Source: Escherichia phage AV111
Strand: one strand, 5' to 3'
Sequence record: OR352941.1
Length of the DNA stretch: 64,000 nt
The notes beneath the pieces are model-generated. The model ran no database searches. It saw only the letters and a program-made list of their open reading frames with translations, and was not told where the DNA came from. The position numbers were made by a program, and so were the translations under genes. Below, one piece after another: positions 3,341 through 38,727 of the stretch; within the stretch, counting starts at the first letter, position 1, and every line of letters begins with the position of its first letter.

Positions 3341-3569
3341 TACACGCTTCAGCCATTTTAAGAATAGAGCCGGGAGTATCGTTGTCCATTATATTAAAGC
3401 TAAATTCAATAGCCCAGTCGGTGCAGACATGAACTGCTTTAACTTCATTGCCTTCAACGCGTAATGGCTCAATCCAATACTTGATAGTGTTCTCGAATCC
3501 ATCATCGTCTTTAACGTCCATTTCAACTTCAAGTCCAAGCCCAGCATTATTAAATTCATCTAAAGTCAT
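3312..3569 (-). CDS. hypothetical acidic protein (46.2-like position)
   Basis: 85 aa ORF, stop overlaps gp47 region. Confidence 0.45.
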   Translation of the reverse strand: MTLDEFNNAGLGLEVEMDVKDDDGFENTIKYWIEPLRVEGNEVKAVHVCTDWAIEFSFNIMDNDTPGSILKMAEACIEDAYNDED

Positions 3570-4585
3570 TGTGTTGCCTCAATATAAAGTTCGTTGGAAT
3601 ATTTGACCAGCGCTTCTCTGTCTTCGTCTGAGATATCTGGAATCGCGTCAATATATTCTTTAATGATATCTTGAAGTGATTTAATCTCGATTTCCTGGTC
3701 GTCATCAGATTCAACACTGTTATCAACTTTAGAAACCATGCGAAGAGAGTGAACTACTTTTTCAAGTTCAGATTCAAACTTAGTCAACTCTGAATCAATT
3801 TCTGATACTATAACACGTAAGGCTAGATTAGTATAATCAGAATAATTGATTTTGCCTTTAAACGGATAAGTGATTCGTCGATGCCATGTTGTTTCATTAG
3901 GAATAAATTCCATACGTTCAACATCAGTGTCAAATACCCAGAATCCGCGCGGGTCATTCTCATCACCTGCAGTAAGGGTCCATGGTGTCCCAATATATTT
4001 GACGTTAGCAGCTTCAGAGATTGTGTGGAAGTGGCCGGACCAGACTTGTTTATAGGTCTTTAAGAAATCAGGTTCAAGCCCATGAGACTTCATTCCTTTA
4101 TAGAAATAAAAGCCGTTAAGTTCCCAGTGACCAACACAATACGCAGCAGAAGAAGTCTTGATGTGCTCTAAGATTTCACCTGTATTTTCTTCACACATCC
4201 ATGGAACGATATCAATCAGACATCCGTCAAAATCTACAGTAGTCGGATGCTCGTAAATAGTAAAGTTTTCAAATTGAGTTAACAATTCAGAAACAGTGTT
4301 AGGTGTTATTGTATTCTTAAACGCCATGTCATGGTTTCCTATCGTGACATGAACGTGAATGCCTGCTTTAGAAATCATATCAACGATTTCACGATTGAAT
4401 TCCATTGTACGATGTGTTATTGCTTTACGGACGTCAAACCAATCACCGTACTGAATCCAAGTTTTAATCCCGTGTTTCTTAGAGTATTCAATTGCTTGTT
4501 GAATACCATCACGTTGAATATCTTGAACCCATGGGTCGTCTTGTTTGACTCCGATATGGAAGTCGCCTAAGTGCAAAATTTTCAT
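3566..4585 (-). CDS. 47: gp47 recombination endonuclease subunit (Mre11/SbcD-like phosphoesterase)
   Basis: 339 aa, same length as T4 gp47; N-terminal MKILHLGDFHIG calcineurin-like motif; SD GAGGAAA upstream of ATG 4585. Confidence 0.9.
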   Translation of the reverse strand: MKILHLGDFHIGVKQDDPWVQDIQRDGIQQAIEYSKKHGIKTWIQYGDWFDVRKAITHRTMEFNREIVDMISKAGIHVHVTIGNHDMAFKNTITPNTVSELLTQFENFTIYEHPTTVDFDGCLIDIVPWMCEENTGEILEHIKTSSAAYCVGHWELNGFYFYKGMKSHGLEPDFLKTYKQVWSGHFHTISEAANVKYIGTPWTLTAGDENDPRGFWVFDTDVERMEFIPNETTWHRRITYPFKGKINYSDYTNLALRVIVSEIDSELTKFESELEKVVHSLRMVSKVDNSVESDDDQEIEIKSLQDIIKEYIDAIPDISDEDREALVKYSNELYIEATQ

Positions 4586-30192: not shown

Positions 30193-30474
30193 CTATTTTT
30201 CTGAAGCGCCTGAAATATATTTTTCAAGACGTTGTTTCATTAGCGAGCCGTTCTTAGCGATTTCTTCCGGTTTATCGCACATACGTAACAAGGCTTCAAG
30301 CTTAGCGATATCGCTGGTACGTTCAAATTTGCGAGTATCTATCTTACTAGCAAGTTCAGAAATACGTGCTAATAGACTTTCGGCTTCAACCAAAGCTGCA
30401 CCTAGCTTAGTTGCAAATGTGTCAGTAGCTTCGTTAAGAATAGATTCTGATAAAAATTCACTATATGTTTTCAT
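30193..30474 (-). CDS. internal-protein-like (capsid-targeting leader)
   Basis: Start at [10 protein letters not shown] (ATG 30472-30474), ATGA overlap with lysozyme stop. Confidence 0.55.
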
Positions 30475-30959
30475 ATATACGCTTTCCAAGTTCCTGTTTT
30501 AAATGTTGAGATTACGCGTTTCGCGCGATTAGGTGTCTGACGATACCATTTAGATTGGGCTAGATTTACTGCCGCTTCATCCCAACGTTTCTGTTGAAGC
30601 ATACGAAGAGAATTAGTAAAACCGGCGACGCCTGATATACCCATTTGGAAGACCATATTGACCAATGCACACCGACGAACCGCATCTAAAGAATCATATA
30701 CCGGTTTAAGTTTAGCATTACCCAAGATTCCGCGAACGGCTTTATCAACGTCTTCATTAAATAGCTTTTCAGCCTCATCAAGGGTAATTGTACCGTTGCA
30801 TTTACGTCCGATCATTCTGTCAAGTTCAGCTTTAGCTACGGCTAAAGACGGATTCTTTGTTACTAAATGGCCAATGCCAATAGTCCAAAAGCCTTCGGTG
30901 TCTTTGTATAAAATCAGTCTAAGACCTTCGTCATTACGAAGCATTTCAAATATATTCAT
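30471..30959 (-). CDS. e: endolysin (T4 lysozyme)
   Basis: [32 protein letters not shown]... near-identical to recalled T4 lysozyme; 162 aa. Confidence 0.95.
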
Positions 30960-31452: not shown

Positions 31453-31678
31453 CTCGGTCCCATGATTTGGCCATTAATTCGGACATAAATTCTTCAATGC
31501 GCGTTTCTTTAGATGGACTTTCACTATTAGAGACCGCAAGTTTGTAATCTGCAATAGGACAGAACATATCAAGGTCCATATTAAGGTCGTCTTTGATTTT
31601 TTCTTCTGACACATCTTTATCGTATGTGTACAGATAACTATCACATGATTCTGATTTAATGTAAATTGCTATACTCAT
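31442..31678 (-). CDS. hypothetical acidic protein
   Basis: Start at second ATG (MSIAIYIK) overlapping upstream stop. Confidence 0.4.
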   Translation of the reverse strand: MSIAIYIKSESCDSYLYTYDKDVSEEKIKDDLNMDLDMFCPIADYKLAVSNSESPSKETRIEEFMSELMAKSWDRDDE

Positions 31679-32166
31679 CTCAAATTCCTGCATTCGGTAA
31701 TAAAACGTTCAACTTCATTATTCTTGGCCTTTATCTTGTCTTTACGTTCCTGTAAACTACTTTTAACAAGATTAATAATGATGCCTACAGTACCGCCGCC
31801 AATGATGCCACCAACAACACTTATGATAATAGATGCTAATAAGATAGCAATAATATCAACAAAACCGAAAGAACTCACCTTAGTACTAAAAAACCATACC
31901 GATGGTACAAATATAATCCATCCTGCTATCCATTGGCACTTATTGAAAAACTTTTCAAGATCAGCTTGAGTTGTTCGTATTACTTCATCGATAGGTTGAT
32001 AACCGTTAATGTATCTGTTCACGATAATACCTGCTGGCTGGTCGATTTTAAATTCTTGGCAAATACGTTTAACTAAGTAGGATGGACATCCTGTCCAATC
32101 TACTGAATAGTATGAAATACCTTCGTTGCCATCGTCTATATTAGACCAATATGTTTTGTTAATCAT
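31675..32166 (-). CDS. membrane protein with C-terminal ERFITECR tail
   Basis: 163 aa; TM segments in C-terminal half; shared tail motif. Confidence 0.5.
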   Translation of the reverse strand: MINKTYWSNIDDGNEGISYYSVDWTGCPSYLVKRICQEFKIDQPAGIIVNRYINGYQPIDEVIRTTQADLEKFFNKCQWIAGWIIFVPSVWFFSTKVSSFGFVDIIAILLASIIISVVGGIIGGGTVGIIINLVKSSLQERKDKIKAKNNEVERFITECRNLR

Positions 32167-32852
32167 TACCAGCCTTCCATAGGGAATTCCAGATAAACTT
32201 GAGCGTTGACACGAATTTCATTGGTAATCTTTTTAACTCGGTCTGTATTACGAGATACACGTCCGAACCAACGCCATCCATTACTAATTGCACGAGAACC
32301 AGTGTGCCATGTTTGCCAATCAAACTGAAGAAGAGTACGGTCTGGAGCTTCCCATTTCTCTAGTTCACCTTTTTCAATTTTTTCGAGGACTTCTTTGTGC
32401 CACTGGCGATAGATAAGTTCACCATCAGGAATCTGACTGAACTCTGCAGTTCCTGTTGCAAAATGAGTAGGACACACATCAGCGTTAACAAGACCAAGAA
32501 TATGTTCAGATAAATAGCGAGGATTGTCATAATCAGGTTGTCCTGCAGTAATAAAGTGTTGACCAACTGGAATATCAGGGCGTGGTACGTCATCATGGTG
32601 ATAACCTGGGATAGCAGGGTACCAACCGGGCATCAGCATATGAACCCGAGAATCAAATACAACATGTTGATTAGTCCAATCAATTGGGAGATTGGCAATA
32701 AAGCTACGAGTGATTGAGCCACCATTATCCCAAGCAAAACCCAAATCACAATTAAAGAACATTGGTTCATTTTTGATTCGGTCATTTTGTACGTTATGTG
32801 CAAAACTACCAACTGCACGAGCTTGACTATTAAACACTTTAGAACTATTCAT
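32166..32852 (-). CDS. hypothetical protein, His/Asp-rich
   Basis: 228 aa; GYHHDD and WHTGSRA segments. Confidence 0.5.
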   Translation of the reverse strand: MNSSKVFNSQARAVGSFAHNVQNDRIKNEPMFFNCDLGFAWDNGGSITRSFIANLPIDWTNQHVVFDSRVHMLMPGWYPAIPGYHHDDVPRPDIPVGQHFITAGQPDYDNPRYLSEHILGLVNADVCPTHFATGTAEFSQIPDGELIYRQWHKEVLEKIEKGELEKWEAPDRTLLQFDWQTWHTGSRAISNGWRWFGRVSRNTDRVKKITNEIRVNAQVYLEFPMEGW

Positions 32853-32853
32853 A

Positions 32854-33159
32854 TTATTTTCCTCGACATTCTTTAATGAAATTTTCTAGATTGGTAGATT
32901 CAATAGCTTTTTTACGAGCTTCTGCGTGTTCTTCTTCAGACAATTTACATTTATAATTGACCCAGACGTTATGGTCGAAACTAGTCGTGGCATATAATAA
33001 CAATGCTCCAACGAATAGCAAAAACGGCGATAAGAATACAAAACCAGGAACACCATCCATACTGTAAGCCTTTTGTAATACTGCAACAGAAAGAGTTGCG
33101 TAAAAAGGTGATGCAAGTATTGTTAAAAGACCAATTCGATTGGTTTCTGTTAATTTCAT
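32854..33159 (-). CDS. membrane protein with C-terminal ENFIKECR tail
   Basis: 101 aa; two TM segments; SD GAGGAGA; early promoter 33188-33217. Confidence 0.55.
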   Translation of the reverse strand: MKLTETNRIGLLTILASPFYATLSVAVLQKAYSMDGVPGFVFLSPFLLFVGALLLYATTSFDHNVWVNYKCKLSEEEHAEARKKAIESTNLENFIKECRGK

Positions 33160-33187
33160 AATATTCTCCTCATGTTTTAATAGGACT

Positions 33188-33217
33188 ACTATAACATAGT
33201 CCTATAATTGTGTAAAC
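33188..33217 (-). promoter_or_regulatory. early promoter (stem-loop cassette family)
   Basis: Minus GTTTACA-N17-TATAGT in TAGGACTA...TAGTCCTA palindrome, then SD GAGGAGA and ATG 33159. Confidence 0.55.
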
Positions 33218-33229
33218 AGTTTTGTGAAG

Positions 33230-34186
33230 TTATTTGAAAGGTTTTACCATATGGAAATTTTGTTTGAAACGTTTGACGTAATCGTCATGTCCTAAGCTTT
33301 GGTACATACTTACTACTTTGCTGTAGTTTTCCCAGGCGTATTCACGGAACCAACCGGAGGTGATGCTTGTGCAGACTTTTTCCAATGCCATTATGAAACT
33401 GGCTTCAGGGTTAATTTCAAAGTTATTAGGAATCTGAGAACGTTCTAATGCTAGTACACATGATTCTTCATATACACCGGCCAATTTGACCATTTCTGGT
33501 AATGATTCGAACTTCTCGCGTGAGGTCATGACTTCAGAACCATCTTTCATGTAAAATGTATACGCTGGACGGTCAGTTAGTGCAATGGCTTCATGGATAG
33601 TATCATGGTCATATGTATAGATGTCATCTTTAAAGAACGCACTTTTAGAAGTGTCAAGAACTGGGTGAGCATAATTCAAGGTTTCTTTCTGGCGTTTCAG
33701 CATAATTTCAGTAAGTTCATCGTTCAGTGTAACACCTTTACCACGAAGATACTGAATATGGTTCATAGTCTTTAAAAAGAATGGATTATTTTTCTTGAAA
33801 CGATGAGACATCTTAATTGCAAGACATATCTCAGGAGTTGCCCAGTAAAACCCGTTCAAACGGTCTTTAGTCAAATTTTTCTTGGCGTATTTTAAAAGGT
33901 CATAAGAAGACGTGAAATCTTCAGGAGTGAGTTCACCGACTAATTCACGGACATTAGTGATTGCCGGAACAATATATGCTTCAAAATGAGTTTCGCGTCC
34001 ATTATGGAAGCATTTGAAAACTTGGACATCAGGGTTATCTTGGTGAACATATACACCCATCATTTGATTTTTGAATGCATTCCAAGAACATTGGTCCGCA
34101 ATAAAGTCCCAATCACTATTTTTAATAGCGCTAGAATCAATAAGACCGTGATAGTGAAGTGCACGAGAACCAATAACTAACATCAT
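33230..34186 (-). CDS. hypothetical protein with N-terminal NTase-like motif
   Basis: 318 aa; N-terminus VIGSRALHYHGLIDSSAIKNSDWDF resembles the GS...D.D nucleotidyltransferase signature. Confidence 0.5.
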   Translation of the reverse strand: MMLVIGSRALHYHGLIDSSAIKNSDWDFIADQCSWNAFKNQMMGVYVHQDNPDVQVFKCFHNGRETHFEAYIVPAITNVRELVGELTPEDFTSSYDLLKYAKKNLTKDRLNGFYWATPEICLAIKMSHRFKKNNPFFLKTMNHIQYLRGKGVTLNDELTEIMLKRQKETLNYAHPVLDTSKSAFFKDDIYTYDHDTIHEAIALTDRPAYTFYMKDGSEVMTSREKFESLPEMVKLAGVYEESCVLALERSQIPNNFEINPEASFIMALEKVCTSITSGWFREYAWENYSKVVSMYQSLGHDDYVKRFKQNFHMVKPFK

Positions 34187-34214
34187 AATATTTTCCTCGG
34201 ATTAATTCATTAAC

Positions 34215-34466
34215 TTAAATTTCACGACATGCGATATTATATTCATCCCAGAGGTCATCATGTGAAGCCTCTACCAATGGAACGATTGTACCGTTTATGT
34301 CTTCATTATAAGGGCAAATTGTACAGTGCGCATCTTCGAATCGGATGCCTTTGTGTTCAGATTTTTTATAACGCATATCGAATATCTTTGCAAACTTTTC
34401 ACGAGTAATGGTTTTAGCAACTACTTTGGTTCCGATACTTTCGTAATAAATCATTGTGGACTCCAT
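34215..34466 (-). CDS. hypothetical protein
   Basis: 83 aa ORF downstream of early promoter 34483-34512. Confidence 0.5.
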   Translation of the reverse strand: MESTMIYYESIGTKVVAKTITREKFAKIFDMRYKKSEHKGIRFEDAHCTICPYNEDINGTIVPLVEASHDDLWDEYNIACREI

Positions 34467-34482
34467 TTGTTTTGATAGGACT

Positions 34483-34512
34483 ACTATAACATAGCCCTAT
34501 CTTGTTGTAAAC
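34483..34512 (-). promoter_or_regulatory. early promoter (stem-loop cassette family)
   Basis: Near-identical copy of the 33188 element. Confidence 0.55.
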
Positions 34513-34516
34513 TGTT

Positions 34517-34714
34517 TTAGCAAGAATAACTAGATGATACCCAGCCTTGAACAGTGATACTATTGTGGGATAATGAGATCGCGTCCTGGAGATTCAGACC
34601 TGCGTTATCTTCAATCCATAATGTAACTTCTTCGCGTTCTTCTGTTGCAATTTGGAACAGGTTTTCCAGAGCAGCTACTGCCGTACGTACAGCACAATCT
34701 AATTCACGAGACAT
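34517..34714 (-). CDS. small protein, WVSSS-x-x-C family
   Basis: 65 aa ending QGWVSSSYSC. Confidence 0.5.
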   Translation of the reverse strand: MSRELDCAVRTAVAALENLFQIATEEREEVTLWIEDNAGLNLQDAISLSHNSITVQGWVSSSYSC

Positions 34715-34723
34715 ATGGTTTCC

Positions 34724-34996
34724 TTAGCAAGTGTGAGAAGATGCGACCCAGCCGCCATCTTCAAGGCTCAGGTTGTAGTCGTATTGGTAAACGTCAGCCC
34801 ATTCAGCCTGGCCGTTTTTTGTACAACGTTCAAGATCGGCTTTAAGATGTCCGGGTGAATGATAGGTTCCACCCATACCATAAGCTGGATACAAGTTGAA
34901 CGTTGTGTTTTGTTTATCAGCAATTTCTTTGGCAGCCTCAATAGCTGCATAGATTTTTGCTACAGCTTCAGCCAGTTCGGTTTGTTCTTTAGACAT
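34724..34996 (-). CDS. small protein, WVSSS-x-x-C family
   Basis: 90 aa ending DGGWVASSHTC; paralog of 35006-35311. Confidence 0.55.
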   Translation of the reverse strand: MSKEQTELAEAVAKIYAAIEAAKEIADKQNTTFNLYPAYGMGGTYHSPGHLKADLERCTKNGQAEWADVYQYDYNLSLEDGGWVASSHTC

Positions 34997-35005
34997 AATG
35001 ATTCC

Positions 35006-35311
35006 TTAGCACAACGCAGAAGACGAAACCCAAGCACCTTCAGTAATAACGTAACCATTACCTTCACGCTTAACATCGCCACCATTATTTTCAATTTCAT
35101 CTTTCATCCACTGGGATACGATTTCACCCTTAGGATAATAAGTACGGCCGCTACCATAATCACCTACAGAAAATGATACGGCATATTGGTCTGCGATCTT
35201 TGTTGCTTCTTCTTCGATACGTTCAGCTTGATTCAGAAGTTTATAAATTGCATCTGAAGCGGATTTGGCATCATTAAACTCTGGTACTTTAATTTCAATA
35301 ATCTTACTCAT
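35006..35311 (-). CDS. small protein, WVSSS-x-x-C family
   Basis: 101 aa ending EGAWVSSSALC; ATG overlaps upstream stop. Confidence 0.55.
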   Translation of the reverse strand: MSKIIEIKVPEFNDAKSASDAIYKLLNQAERIEEEATKIADQYAVSFSVGDYGSGRTYYPKGEIVSQWMKDEIENNGGDVKREGNGYVITEGAWVSSSALC

Positions 35312-35667
35312 TTTCTACATTCCTTAATAAAGTTTTCGATTGTTTCATTTTCACGTTTAGCTAGAAGTTCATTATAACTAATCATTTGAGAAGCGTAAAT
35401 ATTTTTATTTTTCTTGTTATGGTTTATAAAATCGTAGTAAAAATAGACTACGGTACAAAAGGATGCGATGGATGCAAAGGCTTGGGTATACCGTAAGTCC
35501 TGCCATTGGTCTGTGAATCCACCAGTGTTCCCTATAAATCCTAACACAACGCCGTCAATAAGAAATCCAACTAATCCAAAGGCAAATCCCATGCCAATAC
35601 TCATAATAAAAATTAGAATGTTCTCACCAAGAGAAGGCCATACGGTTAAGAGTTGAGGCTTTTGCAT
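35308..35667 (-). CDS. membrane protein with C-terminal ENFIKECRK tail
   Basis: 119 aa, multiple TM segments. Confidence 0.5.
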   Translation of the reverse strand: MQKPQLLTVWPSLGENILIFIMSIGMGFAFGLVGFLIDGVVLGFIGNTGGFTDQWQDLRYTQAFASIASFCTVVYFYYDFINHNKKNKNIYASQMISYNELLAKRENETIENFIKECRK

Positions 35668-36071
35668 CTTATTTCCTTAACGAATTCCATAGCTTCTTCA
35701 TATTCATACTTTTTAACAGCTTCATCATACTGAGCTTTGGCTTTTGCGCACTGAACTTTCCATTCACGAACTCGAGCTCTGTGATGACGGCCTTGGTACC
35801 AATATCCCACCCAGTTAATAGGCATTAATAAAAATGGCACAATAAACGGCCCGGCTATAACAAGTAAAAACACTGCATCAGACGATATAACTTCACTAGA
35901 ATCTAAAACAGCTCCTATAATCATAAAGATTAAAAATGCTAAAGCTAAAATAGGGCCAAATAGTACTTCGTTTGGGATTAATTTACGTTTGTATTCGTAT
36001 GCCCAGGGCTTACTTGGCATGTATAGGGTTGGCTTTGACATATTCTCTACATTCCATAATAAATTGCTCAA
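35646..36071 (-). CDS. membrane protein (start uncertain)
   Basis: 141 aa with TM segments; N-terminus overlaps 36010-36633. Confidence 0.45.
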   Translation of the reverse strand: MSNLLWNVENMSKPTLYMPSKPWAYEYKRKLIPNEVLFGPILALAFLIFMIIGAVLDSSEVISSDAVFLLVIAGPFIVPFLLMPINWVGYWYQGRHHRARVREWKVQCAKAKAQYDEAVKKYEYEEAMEFVKEIRCKSLNS

Positions 36072-36633
36072 GGATTAAATTGTTAGTGAAATTAGGACTA
36101 ACAACCATAGTTTCATAAAGCGCGTCAATAGCACTTAAAGCATCAACTCTTTTAAGCAAAGGCTTGCCTTCATACATAGTTTCAGAATCGATGATTAACG
36201 TAAAGTAATATTTTTTATTATCGACTAGAACTTCTGTATCGATATAAAACATATTAGACCTCAGAAGCTTATCTCTAAAACCATAATAATCTTCTGAACG
36301 TTCACTGATATATTCCAATTCGGTGTTTAAACAACAAACAGACCACGTAGGAGCAACGAAATCAGTGAATCTAATATCATGGTCTGCAACTAGTTTAGCA
36401 ATAGCTCCGATATCATGAATCATAATACCTGGGGCTAATAAAGATTTTCTGCTATGGCTAGCCGTTTTCTCGGTGGTCTCATAAGAAGACGACCAGTACC
36501 ATTTACGTCCGGTTGCAACATATCGTAATGAATCAACTAAAGACGTAGGTGGATTTACCTTATCTCGGAACTCTTCGAACATTGAGTCAATATCATTATT
36601 TTGGTTTCGCATGTTAACTCCTTTATTATCCAA
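36010..36633 (-). CDS. hypothetical protein with C-terminal ...FIMECR motif
   Basis: 207 aa ORF. Confidence 0.5.
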   Translation of the reverse strand: MDNKGVNMRNQNNDIDSMFEEFRDKVNPPTSLVDSLRYVATGRKWYWSSSYETTEKTASHSRKSLLAPGIMIHDIGAIAKLVADHDIRFTDFVAPTWSVCCLNTELEYISERSEDYYGFRDKLLRSNMFYIDTEVLVDNKKYYFTLIIDSETMYEGKPLLKRVDALSAIDALYETMVVSPNFTNNLILEQFIMECREYVKANPIHAK

Positions 36634-36661: not shown

Positions 36662-37255
36662 TTATTTCAAAGAGTTAATATATTCTTGTACATCAGCAGA
36701 AGTGGTTTCAACACCAGCTGGAGTGCCATTGAACGTTTCAACACGAGTCAGAGTATCTTCGATATCAACCTTAGTCAGTGCAGCGATTTCAATTACATCA
36801 TCGGCCGTAGAGATACCAAGGGCATTAGCTGCTCGAGTTTCACGAATGTATTCGAGTTTGATTGCCAGATTCTGACGAGCATCATCAAGTTCAACCACCT
36901 TACGAGCAATTTCAATTCGCATAGCGGCATACCCATCAGCTTTTGTATTAAGTTGTTCGGCAGTTCGACGATACAGAAGACCAAGCTTAGCATGCATAGT
37001 AACATCTTGTCCTTCAGCCAGGAGCTTACGAATTTCACGTTCCTTAGAAGCGGCTTGCTTGTTCTTTTCATTAACAAGTTCGCGAATACGTTTTTCTTCA
37101 TTAATAGATTTAACAGAAGCCGTTTTTAGTTCTTTGATTTGGGTAATCAACTTATCTGCAGCTGCGTTATACTGTTCTTCGACAGTCAGATTTTTAGCCA
37201 TAGCAGTACCCAGTTTAGTGCGGATGAATTCAACAAGTTTCTTCAGTGTGTTCAT
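36662..37255 (-). CDS. coiled-coil protein
   Basis: ATG at 37253-37255 with SD AAAGGT; track start at 37270 is TTG; charged coiled-coil throughout. Confidence 0.5.
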
Positions 37256-37296: not shown

Positions 37297-37325
37297 ATTA
37301 TACTCTGCTCTCAAGAGTTTGTAAA
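37297..37325 (-). promoter_or_regulatory. early promoter
   Basis: Minus TTTACA-N17-TATAAT with GAGAGC/GCTCTC inverted repeat; paralog of 7063-7091. Confidence 0.5.
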
Positions 37326-37553
37326 TTATTTTTTAATCAAATTGACATAAAACTTGGCGTCTTCGGGGTGCATGCCTTCGCAGTATTCTTCAACCATGAA
37401 CTTCTTAACAGCTTCATAAGGACCACTCAGATTAAGCTCAGTTGTCCAGAACTTGGAATCTTGGGCTGAATCGATACGAACTTCAGGGTGTCGGTTGCGA
37501 ATAACTTCTTCGGTGTATTCATAATCAACGACATCAATACTAACTTTAGCCAT
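37326..37553 (-). CDS. hypothetical acidic protein
   Basis: 75 aa; early promoter 37583-37611. Confidence 0.5.
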   Translation of the reverse strand: MAKVSIDVVDYEYTEEVIRNRHPEVRIDSAQDSKFWTTELNLSGPYEAVKKFMVEEYCEGMHPEDAKFYVNLIKK

Positions 37554-38261: not shown

Positions 38262-38525
38262 TTATTTAATTTGTTTAGCAGACCAGATACGGTCTTTAAT
38301 AAGTTTTTGGATATCTTCAACATACTCAAGGCTATGAGCGTGAGGATTATCTTTGAAGCTATGTGCTCGTGCCAGTTTCTGGCCTTCTGTTTTGATTACT
38401 AAAAGCTCTTTAAGAATTGCTTCATACTTAGAAATAATTCCTTTGGCGATATTTTTTTTCTTGAGCTGCTTTAGGGTCCGCTTTTGGCGCAGGTGCTTTA
38501 CCTGTAGCTTTCTGGAACAATTCAC
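38262..38525 (-). CDS. hypothetical basic protein; may be the shifted-frame continuation of 38428-38727
   Basis: 87 aa ORF overlapping the IP-like ORF by 98 nt across a T8 run at 38452-38459. Confidence 0.3.
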   Translation of the reverse strand: MNCSRKLQVKHLRQKRTLKQLKKKNIAKGIISKYEAILKELLVIKTEGQKLARAHSFKDNPHAHSLEYVEDIQKLIKDRIWSAKQIK

Positions 38526-38727
38526 CTGATGCAGCTAGGCTTTTAAAAACTCGGCTAACAGTATTAGCATTAGTAAAACCTTCGGCTTTAAAATCTCTAA
38601 TAAAACGGAAACGTTCTTCATCAGAGGCGTCTTTGTAAGAATATTTACCTGCTTGAATTGCTGCAATCGCAGCGGCTTTTACATCTGAACTAGATTGTTC
38701 AGTCAAAAATTCAGCGTATGATTTCAT
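38428..38727 (-). CDS. internal-protein-like (capsid-targeting leader)
   Basis: 99 aa; N-terminal MKSYAEFLTE; Ala/Lys/Pro-rich C-terminus. Confidence 0.5.
   Translation of the reverse strand: MKSYAEFLTEQSSSDVKAAAIAAIQAGKYSYKDASDEERFRFIRDFKAEGFTNANTVSRVFKSLAASGELFQKATGKAPAPKADPKAAQEKKYRQRNYF

Follow-up and report, generated by a model that had tools for sequence, protein, structure and literature searches.

Five open reading frames (ORFs), e.5, e.4, e.3, RB69ORF133c (hereafter ORF133c) and e.2, encode proteins ending with the same short tail in a stretch of 64,000 nucleotides (nt) of Escherichia phage AV111 (sequence record OR352941.1; this whole 64-kb stretch is hereafter the window). We found that this tail is a real short linear motif, previously unannotated, with a clear genomic logic. 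Its context points to a module built around the adjacent gene e.6 which, judging from profile intermediates and a predicted fold, encodes a divergent member of the PspA/IM30/Vipp1 family; this is more specific than the superinfection exclusion or lysis control that the initial annotation of these genes had evoked. Names of the window ORFs are taken from the annotation of phages JS09 and T4, coordinates without a locus label are positions in the window, and the tail genes are all on the minus strand. The region is 95–97% identical to RB69-like phages of the genus Mosigvirus.

The C-terminal tail and its carriers

The pattern F-[IV]-x-E-[CI]-R has five matches in the six-frame translation of the window, all of them in these five ORFs, whereas 200 dinucleotide-preserving simulations averaged 0.2 matches and never gave more than 2. 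This bears out the shared tail described in the initial annotation. The matches lie 7–17 residues from the stop codon (11 in e.5). All five ORFs exist on the minus strand as had been proposed, but e.5 and e.4 likely start at the ATG codons at 36612 and 36041 and not at the upstream TTG. In the complete genome of the Mosigvirus TH58 (170,748 bp), F[IV]xxCR was found only in e.5, e.3, ORF133c and e.2, plus one antisense junk ORF. A hydropathy scan gave two membrane spans in e.2, ORF133c and e.4, a single long one in e.3 and none in e.5, in agreement with the transmembrane segments predicted earlier for four of the five; in the T4 orthologue of e.3 it gave two spans. The tail carriers of T4 are e.5, e.4 (C-terminus MKFVKESRCKSQS), e.3 (MKEFVIDCRKIK) and the 3' remnant of a truncated e.2.

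The T4 e.2 gene (locus L003, NC_000866, ~3492-3961, minus strand) is annotated with 103 amino acids (aa), against 162 aa in close relatives. Its tail, NNFITECRKLK, is still encoded by a remnant ORF, unannotated, that lies between e.2 and nudE. The truncation is probably a frameshift in the laboratory strain.

Our comparison set consisted of 34 related loci from viral contigs, with e.6 as the anchor, plus T4, JS09 and Bp7. Searching ORF ends for F-[IVL]-x-x-[CVAMIS]-R gave 126 distinct copies. The general motif is hydrophobic(-3)-[E/D/N]-x-F(0)-[IV](+1)-x-x-C(+4)-R(+5)-[K/R/G/N], found 1–15 residues from the end of the protein. The eight-residue form originally described, (E/Q)-x-F-I-x-E-C-R, holds in the window apart from the degenerate tail of e.4, but the Glu before the Cys is specific to the T4/RB69/JS98 clade, with KGCR, KNCR, DQCR or NYCR elsewhere, and the general form is F-[IV]-x-x-C-R. 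Each genome of the 34 loci has 3–7 pattern-matching ORFs, which follow e.6 on the coding strand; such ORFs are rare elsewhere.

The carriers form 24 BLAST clusters, about 20 of which are credible, and are otherwise unrelated. Most are two-span hairpins whose positive-inside bias predicts that both ends are cytoplasmic. Their description as small membrane proteins fits four of the five in the window but not e.5, nor several other carrier families, which are soluble as well: a second e.5-type family in Dhakavirus and families of 95, 99, 102 and 131 aa. The e.5 family is the most widespread carrier and probably the ancestral one. None of the tail carriers matched Pfam, and their PHROGs labels read unknown or 'membrane protein'. 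Among the window proteins, e.2, e.3 and e.4 had no Pfam match and ORF133c only a sub-threshold one to PcfK; NCBIfam gave nothing significant for these four. ORF133c shows weak similarity to the e.2 family phrog_2203, over the C-terminal half of the latter, and e.5 homologues of Mosigvirus and Tequatrovirus carry the precomputed Pfam label PF26876. Neither the tail nor a T4 homologue of PspA was described in the open-access literature that we searched for T4 gene names and phage-encoded PspA.

Positions -3, 0, +1 and +4 of the motif fall on one face of a helix, and in an AlphaFold2 (AF2) model of e.5 (predicted local distance difference test, pLDDT, of 66, i.e., moderate) the tail is a helix spanning residues 178-193. 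The Cys, to judge from its substitutions, is a small hydrophobic contact and not a reactive thiol, because whole lineages such as e.4 carry V, I, M, S or A in its place. On account of the same replacements we dropped the idea of a reactive or metal-binding Cys.

Codon usage and family alignments indicate that the conservation of the tail acts on the protein and not on the RNA, because synonymous codons vary and because alignments made independently of the search pattern keep the tail residues. Among the 126 distinct copies, the Arg codons are AGA (43), CGT (35), AGG (20), CGA (14), CGC (10) and CGG (4), those of Cys are TGC (56) and TGT (43), those of Phe TTT (87) and TTC (39), and ATT, ATC and ATA are each present for Ile. 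Wobble positions carry 0.2–1.1 bits, compared with 2 bits at first and second positions. In the window, the e.3 and ORF133c tails share an identical ENFIKECR sequence with 4 synonymous differences, and the two variable residues of the motif differ between copies at all three codon positions. The pattern-independent evidence comes from alignments of the e.5 and e.2 families and from genes picked by synteny in distant lineages. The only invariant columns of the e.5 alignment (13–19% identity) are N95, F183 and C187, in the numbering of the 199-aa query, and those of the e.2 alignment (19–32% identity) are C26, G54, F154, I155, C158 and R159, four of these six being in the tail.

A nucleic-acid signal at gene junctions, translated incidentally, would be an alternative; it could be a ribosome-binding or translational-coupling site, a RegB or RegA target, or a recombination linker. 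Several features of the window would suit it. The motif ends -1 to +10 nt from the next ATG, overlapping the ribosome-binding region of the following gene as the initial annotation had pointed out; the Arg codon and its neighbours form AGGA or GAGG; and the position of the e.5 motif is fixed relative to the start of e.4, 4 nt past its Arg codon, and not to its own stop. Furthermore, one of the three reading frames across the motif is closed by stop codons (TAA and TAG), which makes the constancy of the frame weaker evidence than it appears. Yet the overlap is not kept in more distant relatives. Over the whole set of copies, the Arg codon and the following ORF start are -1 to 179 nt apart, and in about a quarter of the cases at least 20 nt. 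We thus did not find the nucleotide conservation and fixed spacing of a ribosome-binding or translational-coupling element. With all six Arg codons, both Cys and both Phe codons in use, a wobble position that is nearly free, and variable residues that differ at every codon position, the view that a Shine-Dalgarno site is insufficient to explain eight conserved residues is upheld, and the RNA-level reading is essentially refuted by codon usage and variable spacing. The motif is in frame at every locus, and orthologues and paralogues retain its residues although their codons differ, the opposite of the outcome (conserved nucleotides with a shifted frame) that had been named as refuting a protein feature.

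Nor do the tails behave like the gene-boundary elements of T4-type phages, i.e., promoter-early stem-loop cassettes and linkers. Both are repeats at gene junctions in variable regions, but the known elements are made of nucleotides (an early promoter and a stem-loop), whereas the tail shows amino-acid conservation, free synonymous change and no fixed relation to promoters or starts. Promoter-like sites and the stem-loop of the region do not, as a rule, coincide with tails, and early promoters are not tied to each copy. Recent gene conversion, or a recombination linker, can be dismissed on account of the synonymous differences between the protein-identical tails of e.3 and ORF133c and of the diversity of the variable positions within one genome. 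All in all, we regard a junction signal as very improbable.

The PspA-like protein e.6 and its association with the tail

Proteins of the PspA/IM30/Vipp1 family are bacterial ESCRT-III-type proteins that polymerise on the inner membrane and repair it. The e.6 protein is conserved at 55–100% identity across many genera, and a search with its profile retrieved just 45 clusters among 1.84 billion representatives, all of about 200 aa. Two of its remote relatives, P0084 and P0078 (E-values to the e.6 profile of 4.6e-17 and 5.7e-20), score 39.0 and 35.1 bits on Pfam PspA_IM30 (PF04012), above the gathering cut-off of 33.9 bits. They are full-length proteins that match over residues 6-146 and bear the PspA_IM30 label in precomputed tables, and P0084 also has a weak match to the LiaH model (E 0.005). 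The e.6 protein of the window has no match to PF04012 at E <= 0.1, and membership thus rests on these intermediates because e.6 itself is under the Pfam threshold. A wide e.6 profile aligned to E. coli PspA with hhalign (E 2e-4, probability 47%) colinearly from residue 1; a narrow profile compared with the same protein, and a sequence search of the PDB with e.6, gave nothing useful.

The AF2 model of e.6 (pLDDT 77) has helices at 3-20, 25-80, 86-145, 166-174 and 186-196. This is the layout of PspA, with an N-terminal amphipathic helix, a long alpha1/alpha2-3 hairpin, and short alpha4 and alpha5. When the model was searched against the PDB with Foldseek, the first 11 matches were all Vipp1, PspA or archaeal CdvB2. 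GenBank names are in conflict here: for e.6, many records have 'host specificity protein' and a single one has 'shock protein A', and a gene under the e.5/e.4 match is labelled 'sulfurtransferase' in some. We found no support in this analysis for the labels 'host specificity protein' or 'sulfurtransferase'.

A relaxed tail pattern, written after e.6 had been seen, fits six of the 184 window ORFs: a frd.3-like ORF, e.6, e.4, e.3, ORF133c and e.2. The frd.3-like ORF is a doubtful carrier, as it fits only this relaxed pattern, which could be due to chance. That the tail might be a copy of the C-terminal helix of e.6 itself was considered and kept as speculation, the strict tail profile giving no score to the e.6 C-terminus.

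The association of the tail with e.6 extends across lineages. An e.5-like gene directly follows e.6 in 34/34 loci, and every tail copy in the loci examined sits between e.6 and nudE. The gene directly after e.6 always bears the motif in enterobacterial phages, and does so in 14/16 of the distant lineages examined, e.g., as LFVDYCRR or SFINYCI in Aeromonas phages and KFIHSCKK in Pseudotevenvirus. The remote e.6 relatives are found on T4-like metagenomic contigs (encoding UvsX and the gp41 helicase), and the tails downstream of them take lineage-specific forms (Table 1). In the distant lineages, F changes to I or A and C to A or T jointly in every copy that a genome carries, which is the behaviour expected if the peptides have to fit a single partner. 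This joint change is not due to recent duplication, because the carriers can be as unlike as the 186-aa and 60-aa proteins of one contig (L051).

A proposed docking helix and the alternatives

These observations lead us to propose that the tail is a short cytoplasmic amphipathic helix belonging first to e.5, and that in enterobacterial T-even phages the same helix was placed on some 20 otherwise unrelated small early proteins, mostly hairpins. The helix would be a common docking peptide, with the hydrophobic face (-3, 0, +1, +4) and the invariant Arg binding a single common partner, for which the e.6 polymer is the likeliest candidate. In this scheme the hairpin proteins would be interchangeable membrane anchors or regulators of this polymer, with e.5 as its soluble partner, and the whole would make up a phage-encoded membrane-maintenance machine produced early in infection. 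The promoter-like sites upstream of e.6 and ORF133c, which are consensus matches in the sequence, fit early expression. We consider it probable that the tail binds one common partner. The full chain, in which we infer the docking, the identity of the partner, the role of the hairpins and the purpose of membrane maintenance, stands somewhat short of an even chance. Tentative, and rather doubtful as yet, is the idea of a phage ESCRT-III/PspA machine (e.6) addressed by a modular peptide code, borne by diversifying hairpins and by e.5, that would recruit or tune the polymer early. On this idea, the machine would plausibly serve to keep up the membrane potential when it is threatened by injection damage, by superinfection or by abortive-infection effectors that depolarise the membrane, and the turnover of adaptors would reflect an arms race.

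Known systems offer partial parallels. In E. coli and Yersinia, PspA works with PspB and PspC, and the cytoplasmic C-terminal domain of PspC binds PspA. As in the phage, a gene of the PspA family stands beside genes of small inner-membrane proteins, which would make contact through a cytoplasmic helix at their C-terminus; the helices of e.6 are laid out as in PspA, and remote relatives of e.6 pass the Pfam PspA_IM30 threshold. Unlike PspB and PspC, to which they have no sequence or Pfam relation, the phage adaptors are many and unrelated within a genome instead of forming one pair, and the same peptide is also borne by the soluble e.5. The phage module further differs in lacking a PspF-like regulator, in being encoded by a virulent phage and in being expressed early. 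In Bacillus subtilis, the membrane anchor of the PspA homologue LiaH is LiaI, so that here too a small protein with two spans would bring a PspA-like protein to the membrane. The phage proteins, however, lack a match to the LiaI-LiaF-TM domain and their peptide occurs on some 20 families; we know of no shared C-terminal peptide described for LiaI. Profiles of PspC (PF04024), PspB and LiaI-LiaF-TM had no match in e.2, e.3, e.4 or ORF133c, which are not members of these families but may, by analogy, work like them. Finally, a C-terminal peptide of CdvA recruits CdvB. In that interaction (E3B-CdvB), as in the MIM-MIT interactions of eukaryotic ESCRT-III, a short terminal helix or peptide recruits or regulates an ESCRT-III-type polymer at the membrane; the likeness is by analogy only, since sequences and binding domain differ and e.6 has no winged helix or MIT domain.

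Other explanations at the protein level have to be weighed against this one. The tail could dock to a host target instead. This might be PspA or PspF, with the tail imitating the PspA-binding C-terminal domain of PspC, or some other host protein of the inner membrane or the cytoplasm, so that many different phage proteins would be brought to one host site. Conservation of a peptide on many scaffolds fits this equally well, and a hairpin that ends in a cytoplasmic helix is reminiscent of PspC. The end of E. coli PspC, LREMERYVTSDTFTLRSRFRQL, even has M-E-R-Y-V where the e.2 tail has V-E-R-F-I-T-E-C-R, a likeness of five residues that carries no statistical weight. (In E. coli K-12 pspC, at 3526-3885 of locus L070, this resemblance is held in the C-terminal region LREMERYVTSDTF, which is reported to bind PspA.) Yet a host target leaves the strict adjacency of e.5 and e.6 unexplained, and Pfam gives no match to PspC. 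The motif is retained in Aeromonas phages too, and a phage partner that co-evolves would account more readily for the shifts from F..C to I/A..A seen from one phage lineage to another; we think a host target unlikely. Somewhat less likely still is a tail without an outside partner, through which carriers would associate with one another (in tail-tail bundles or as homo- or hetero-oligomers) or which would lie flat on the membrane. The spacing of hydrophobic residues at i, i+3, i+4 and i+7 is typical of helix-helix packing, several carriers would be made together from one early transcription region, and the e.6 C-terminus fits the relaxed pattern, though the strict profile does not score it. 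An invariant Arg beside a small hydrophobic residue, with acidic residues allowed at +2/+3, would nevertheless be unusual for a helix on the membrane surface, to which the membrane carriers are in any case already anchored.

A signal for proteolysis or processing has, in our estimate, a slimmer chance again. It could be a degron through which FtsH, Lon or ClpXP would remove early proteins at a set time, or an I-x-E site of the T4 prohead protease, which cleaves by an I-x-E rule and acts on internal proteins with the capsid-targeting sequence MKTYxEF[IL]xE. The tail is exposed, C-terminal and found on unrelated proteins, as such a signal might be, and the F-I-x-E of the T4/RB69 clade resembles both the I-x-E rule and the EF[IL]xE of the targeting sequences at 30193-30489 and 38428-38727. 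These two ORFs, both on the minus strand and flanking the region, encode small internal-protein-like products that start with the T4 capsid-targeting pattern, MKSYAEFLTE in one case. The capsid-targeting sequence shares with the tail the principle of one label for many payloads, being a short terminal peptide on highly polymorphic small proteins of a variable T-even region, but it is N-terminal, sends its proteins to the capsid and is cut off by the prohead protease after an I/L-x-E, whereas the tail is C-terminal and mostly on membrane proteins, and membrane hairpins are implausible capsid cargo. Its Glu is not kept outside one clade and is absent in most distant copies (FIKGCR, FIKNCR, FVDQCR), and we rejected an identity with the capsid-targeting signal on these grounds. 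Moreover, the motif can be 11–35 residues from the end, which is at odds with end-dependent degrons, and a lineage-wide shift from F..C to I..A would be odd for a signal read by a host protease.

Several points weigh against docking to e.6. The loci were collected with e.6 as bait from related and syntenic phages, which biases its co-occurrence with the tail, and the search pattern demanded F and R, so that their 100% conservation among the 126 copies is partly circular. Genes after the e.6-like gene show no tail in two contigs (L054 and L063), and in the window e.2 and ORF133c are 3.5–5 kb from e.6, with unrelated genes between. Structure prediction covered the single chains of e.6 and e.5, and the e.5 model, besides its moderate pLDDT of 66, had no credible fold match by Foldseek.

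Genomic surroundings and meaning of the proposed module

The tail genes are part of a wider variable neighbourhood (Table 1), with nudE and the lysozyme gene e downstream. The stop codon of e.3 overlaps the following ATG (ATGA). The stem-loop between e.6 and e.5 is terminator-like on either strand and may serve to attenuate or stabilise the e.6 transcript. Two genes that T4 lacks are interleaved among the tail genes: RB69ORF132c (32166-32852, minus strand, 228 aa), whose C-terminal end VNAQVYLEFPMEGW is strongly conserved across genera and whose counterpart in Aeromonas phage G2 (L050, 7247-7933) is just upstream of e.6, and RB69ORF134c (33230-34186, minus strand, 318 aa), with Pfam domains DUF7277 and DUF7275. 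There is also a second tandem family, of small soluble ORFs, at 34517-35311 on the minus strand: RB69ORF139c (35006-35311), RB69ORF137c (34724-34996) and RB69ORF136c (34517-34714). They have a common C-terminal tail of their own, G-x-W-[VI]-[SA]-S-S-x-x-C-stop (GAWVSSSALC, GGWVASSHTC and QGWVSSSYSC), which has 3–5 copies in related phages (e.g., GVWISSSEMC, GGWVSSSMEC, GSIWQPSSC) and an invariant final Cys.

Table 1. Features of the e.6 region in the window, and tails found downstream of e.6 or e.6-like genes in other lineages.
Feature	Position	Strand	Description
frd.3-like ORF	37326-37553	(-)	75 aa; adjoins e.6 upstream; C-terminus DAKFYVNLIKK
T4-early-type promoter-like site	37297-37325	(-)	TTTACA-17-TATAAT just upstream of e.6; 11/12 consensus matches, consensus match only
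e.6	36662-37255	(-)	197 aa; directly upstream of e.5; divergent PspA/IM30 (ESCRT-III-type) protein, by profile intermediates and predicted fold
G+C-rich stem-loop	36636-36653	(-)	GGAGGACTCCGGTCCTCC followed by TTTT; between e.6 and e.5; perfect 7-bp stem
e.5	36010-36612	(-)	200 aa; soluble; tail LILEQFIMECREYVKANPIHAK; motif codons 36046-36063
e.4	35646-36041	(-)	131 aa; two-span membrane hairpin; degenerate tail EEAMEFVKEIRCKSLNS (FVKEIR); motif codons 35667-35684
e.3	35308-35667	(-)	119 aa; membrane protein; tail ETIENFIKECRK; motif codons 35314-35331
Early-type promoter-like site	33188-33216		upstream of ORF133c
RB69ORF133c	32854-33159	(-)	101 aa; two-span hairpin; tail TNLENFIKECRGK; motif codons 32863-32880
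e.2	31675-32166	(-)	163 aa; soluble N-terminal part, two-span hairpin; tail NNEVERFITECRNLR; motif codons 31687-31704
Aeromonas avDM1, gene after e.6			tail LFVDYCRRTASKK
Aeromonas G2, two copies after e.6			tails SFINYCIVNVRGEI and SFVEYCIEMNK
Citrobacter Miller, gene after e.6			KFIHSCKKN, 27 residues from end
Serratia 4S, two copies after e.6			SIIHQARQR and QAIHEARQR
L051			SILARAR on 186-aa protein; SIIKHARSR on 60-aa membrane protein
L053, four consecutive genes after PspA-like gene			SILANARER, AIVHRARLE, RIVFITRQR, TIIARAKSS
L055, downstream of e.6-like gene			RIVKIAEEE and KIVEQAREE
L057, downstream of e.6-like gene			KYIHRCKKK
L058, downstream of e.6-like gene			SFIDECKAIVKAGR
L060, downstream of e.6-like gene			AYIEKCKAIVKGRK
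L062, downstream of e.6-like gene			KIIETAKSE

To our knowledge, no function has been assigned to T4 e.2 to e.6 since the genome was sequenced. The module that we propose is related to known associations of PspA/ESCRT-III proteins with small membrane partners, and is unusual in having one address peptide over many unrelated phage proteins. If this is true, the orphan genes e.2-e.6 would be one module, made of a viral PspA/ESCRT-III-type protein and adaptors that share an address peptide. They would then offer direct access to the management of the host inner membrane by a virulent phage, and a clear case, in a bacterial virus, of a short linear motif common to unrelated proteins. Even with another partner, the motif would be a reliable annotation marker for a large class of small phage proteins.

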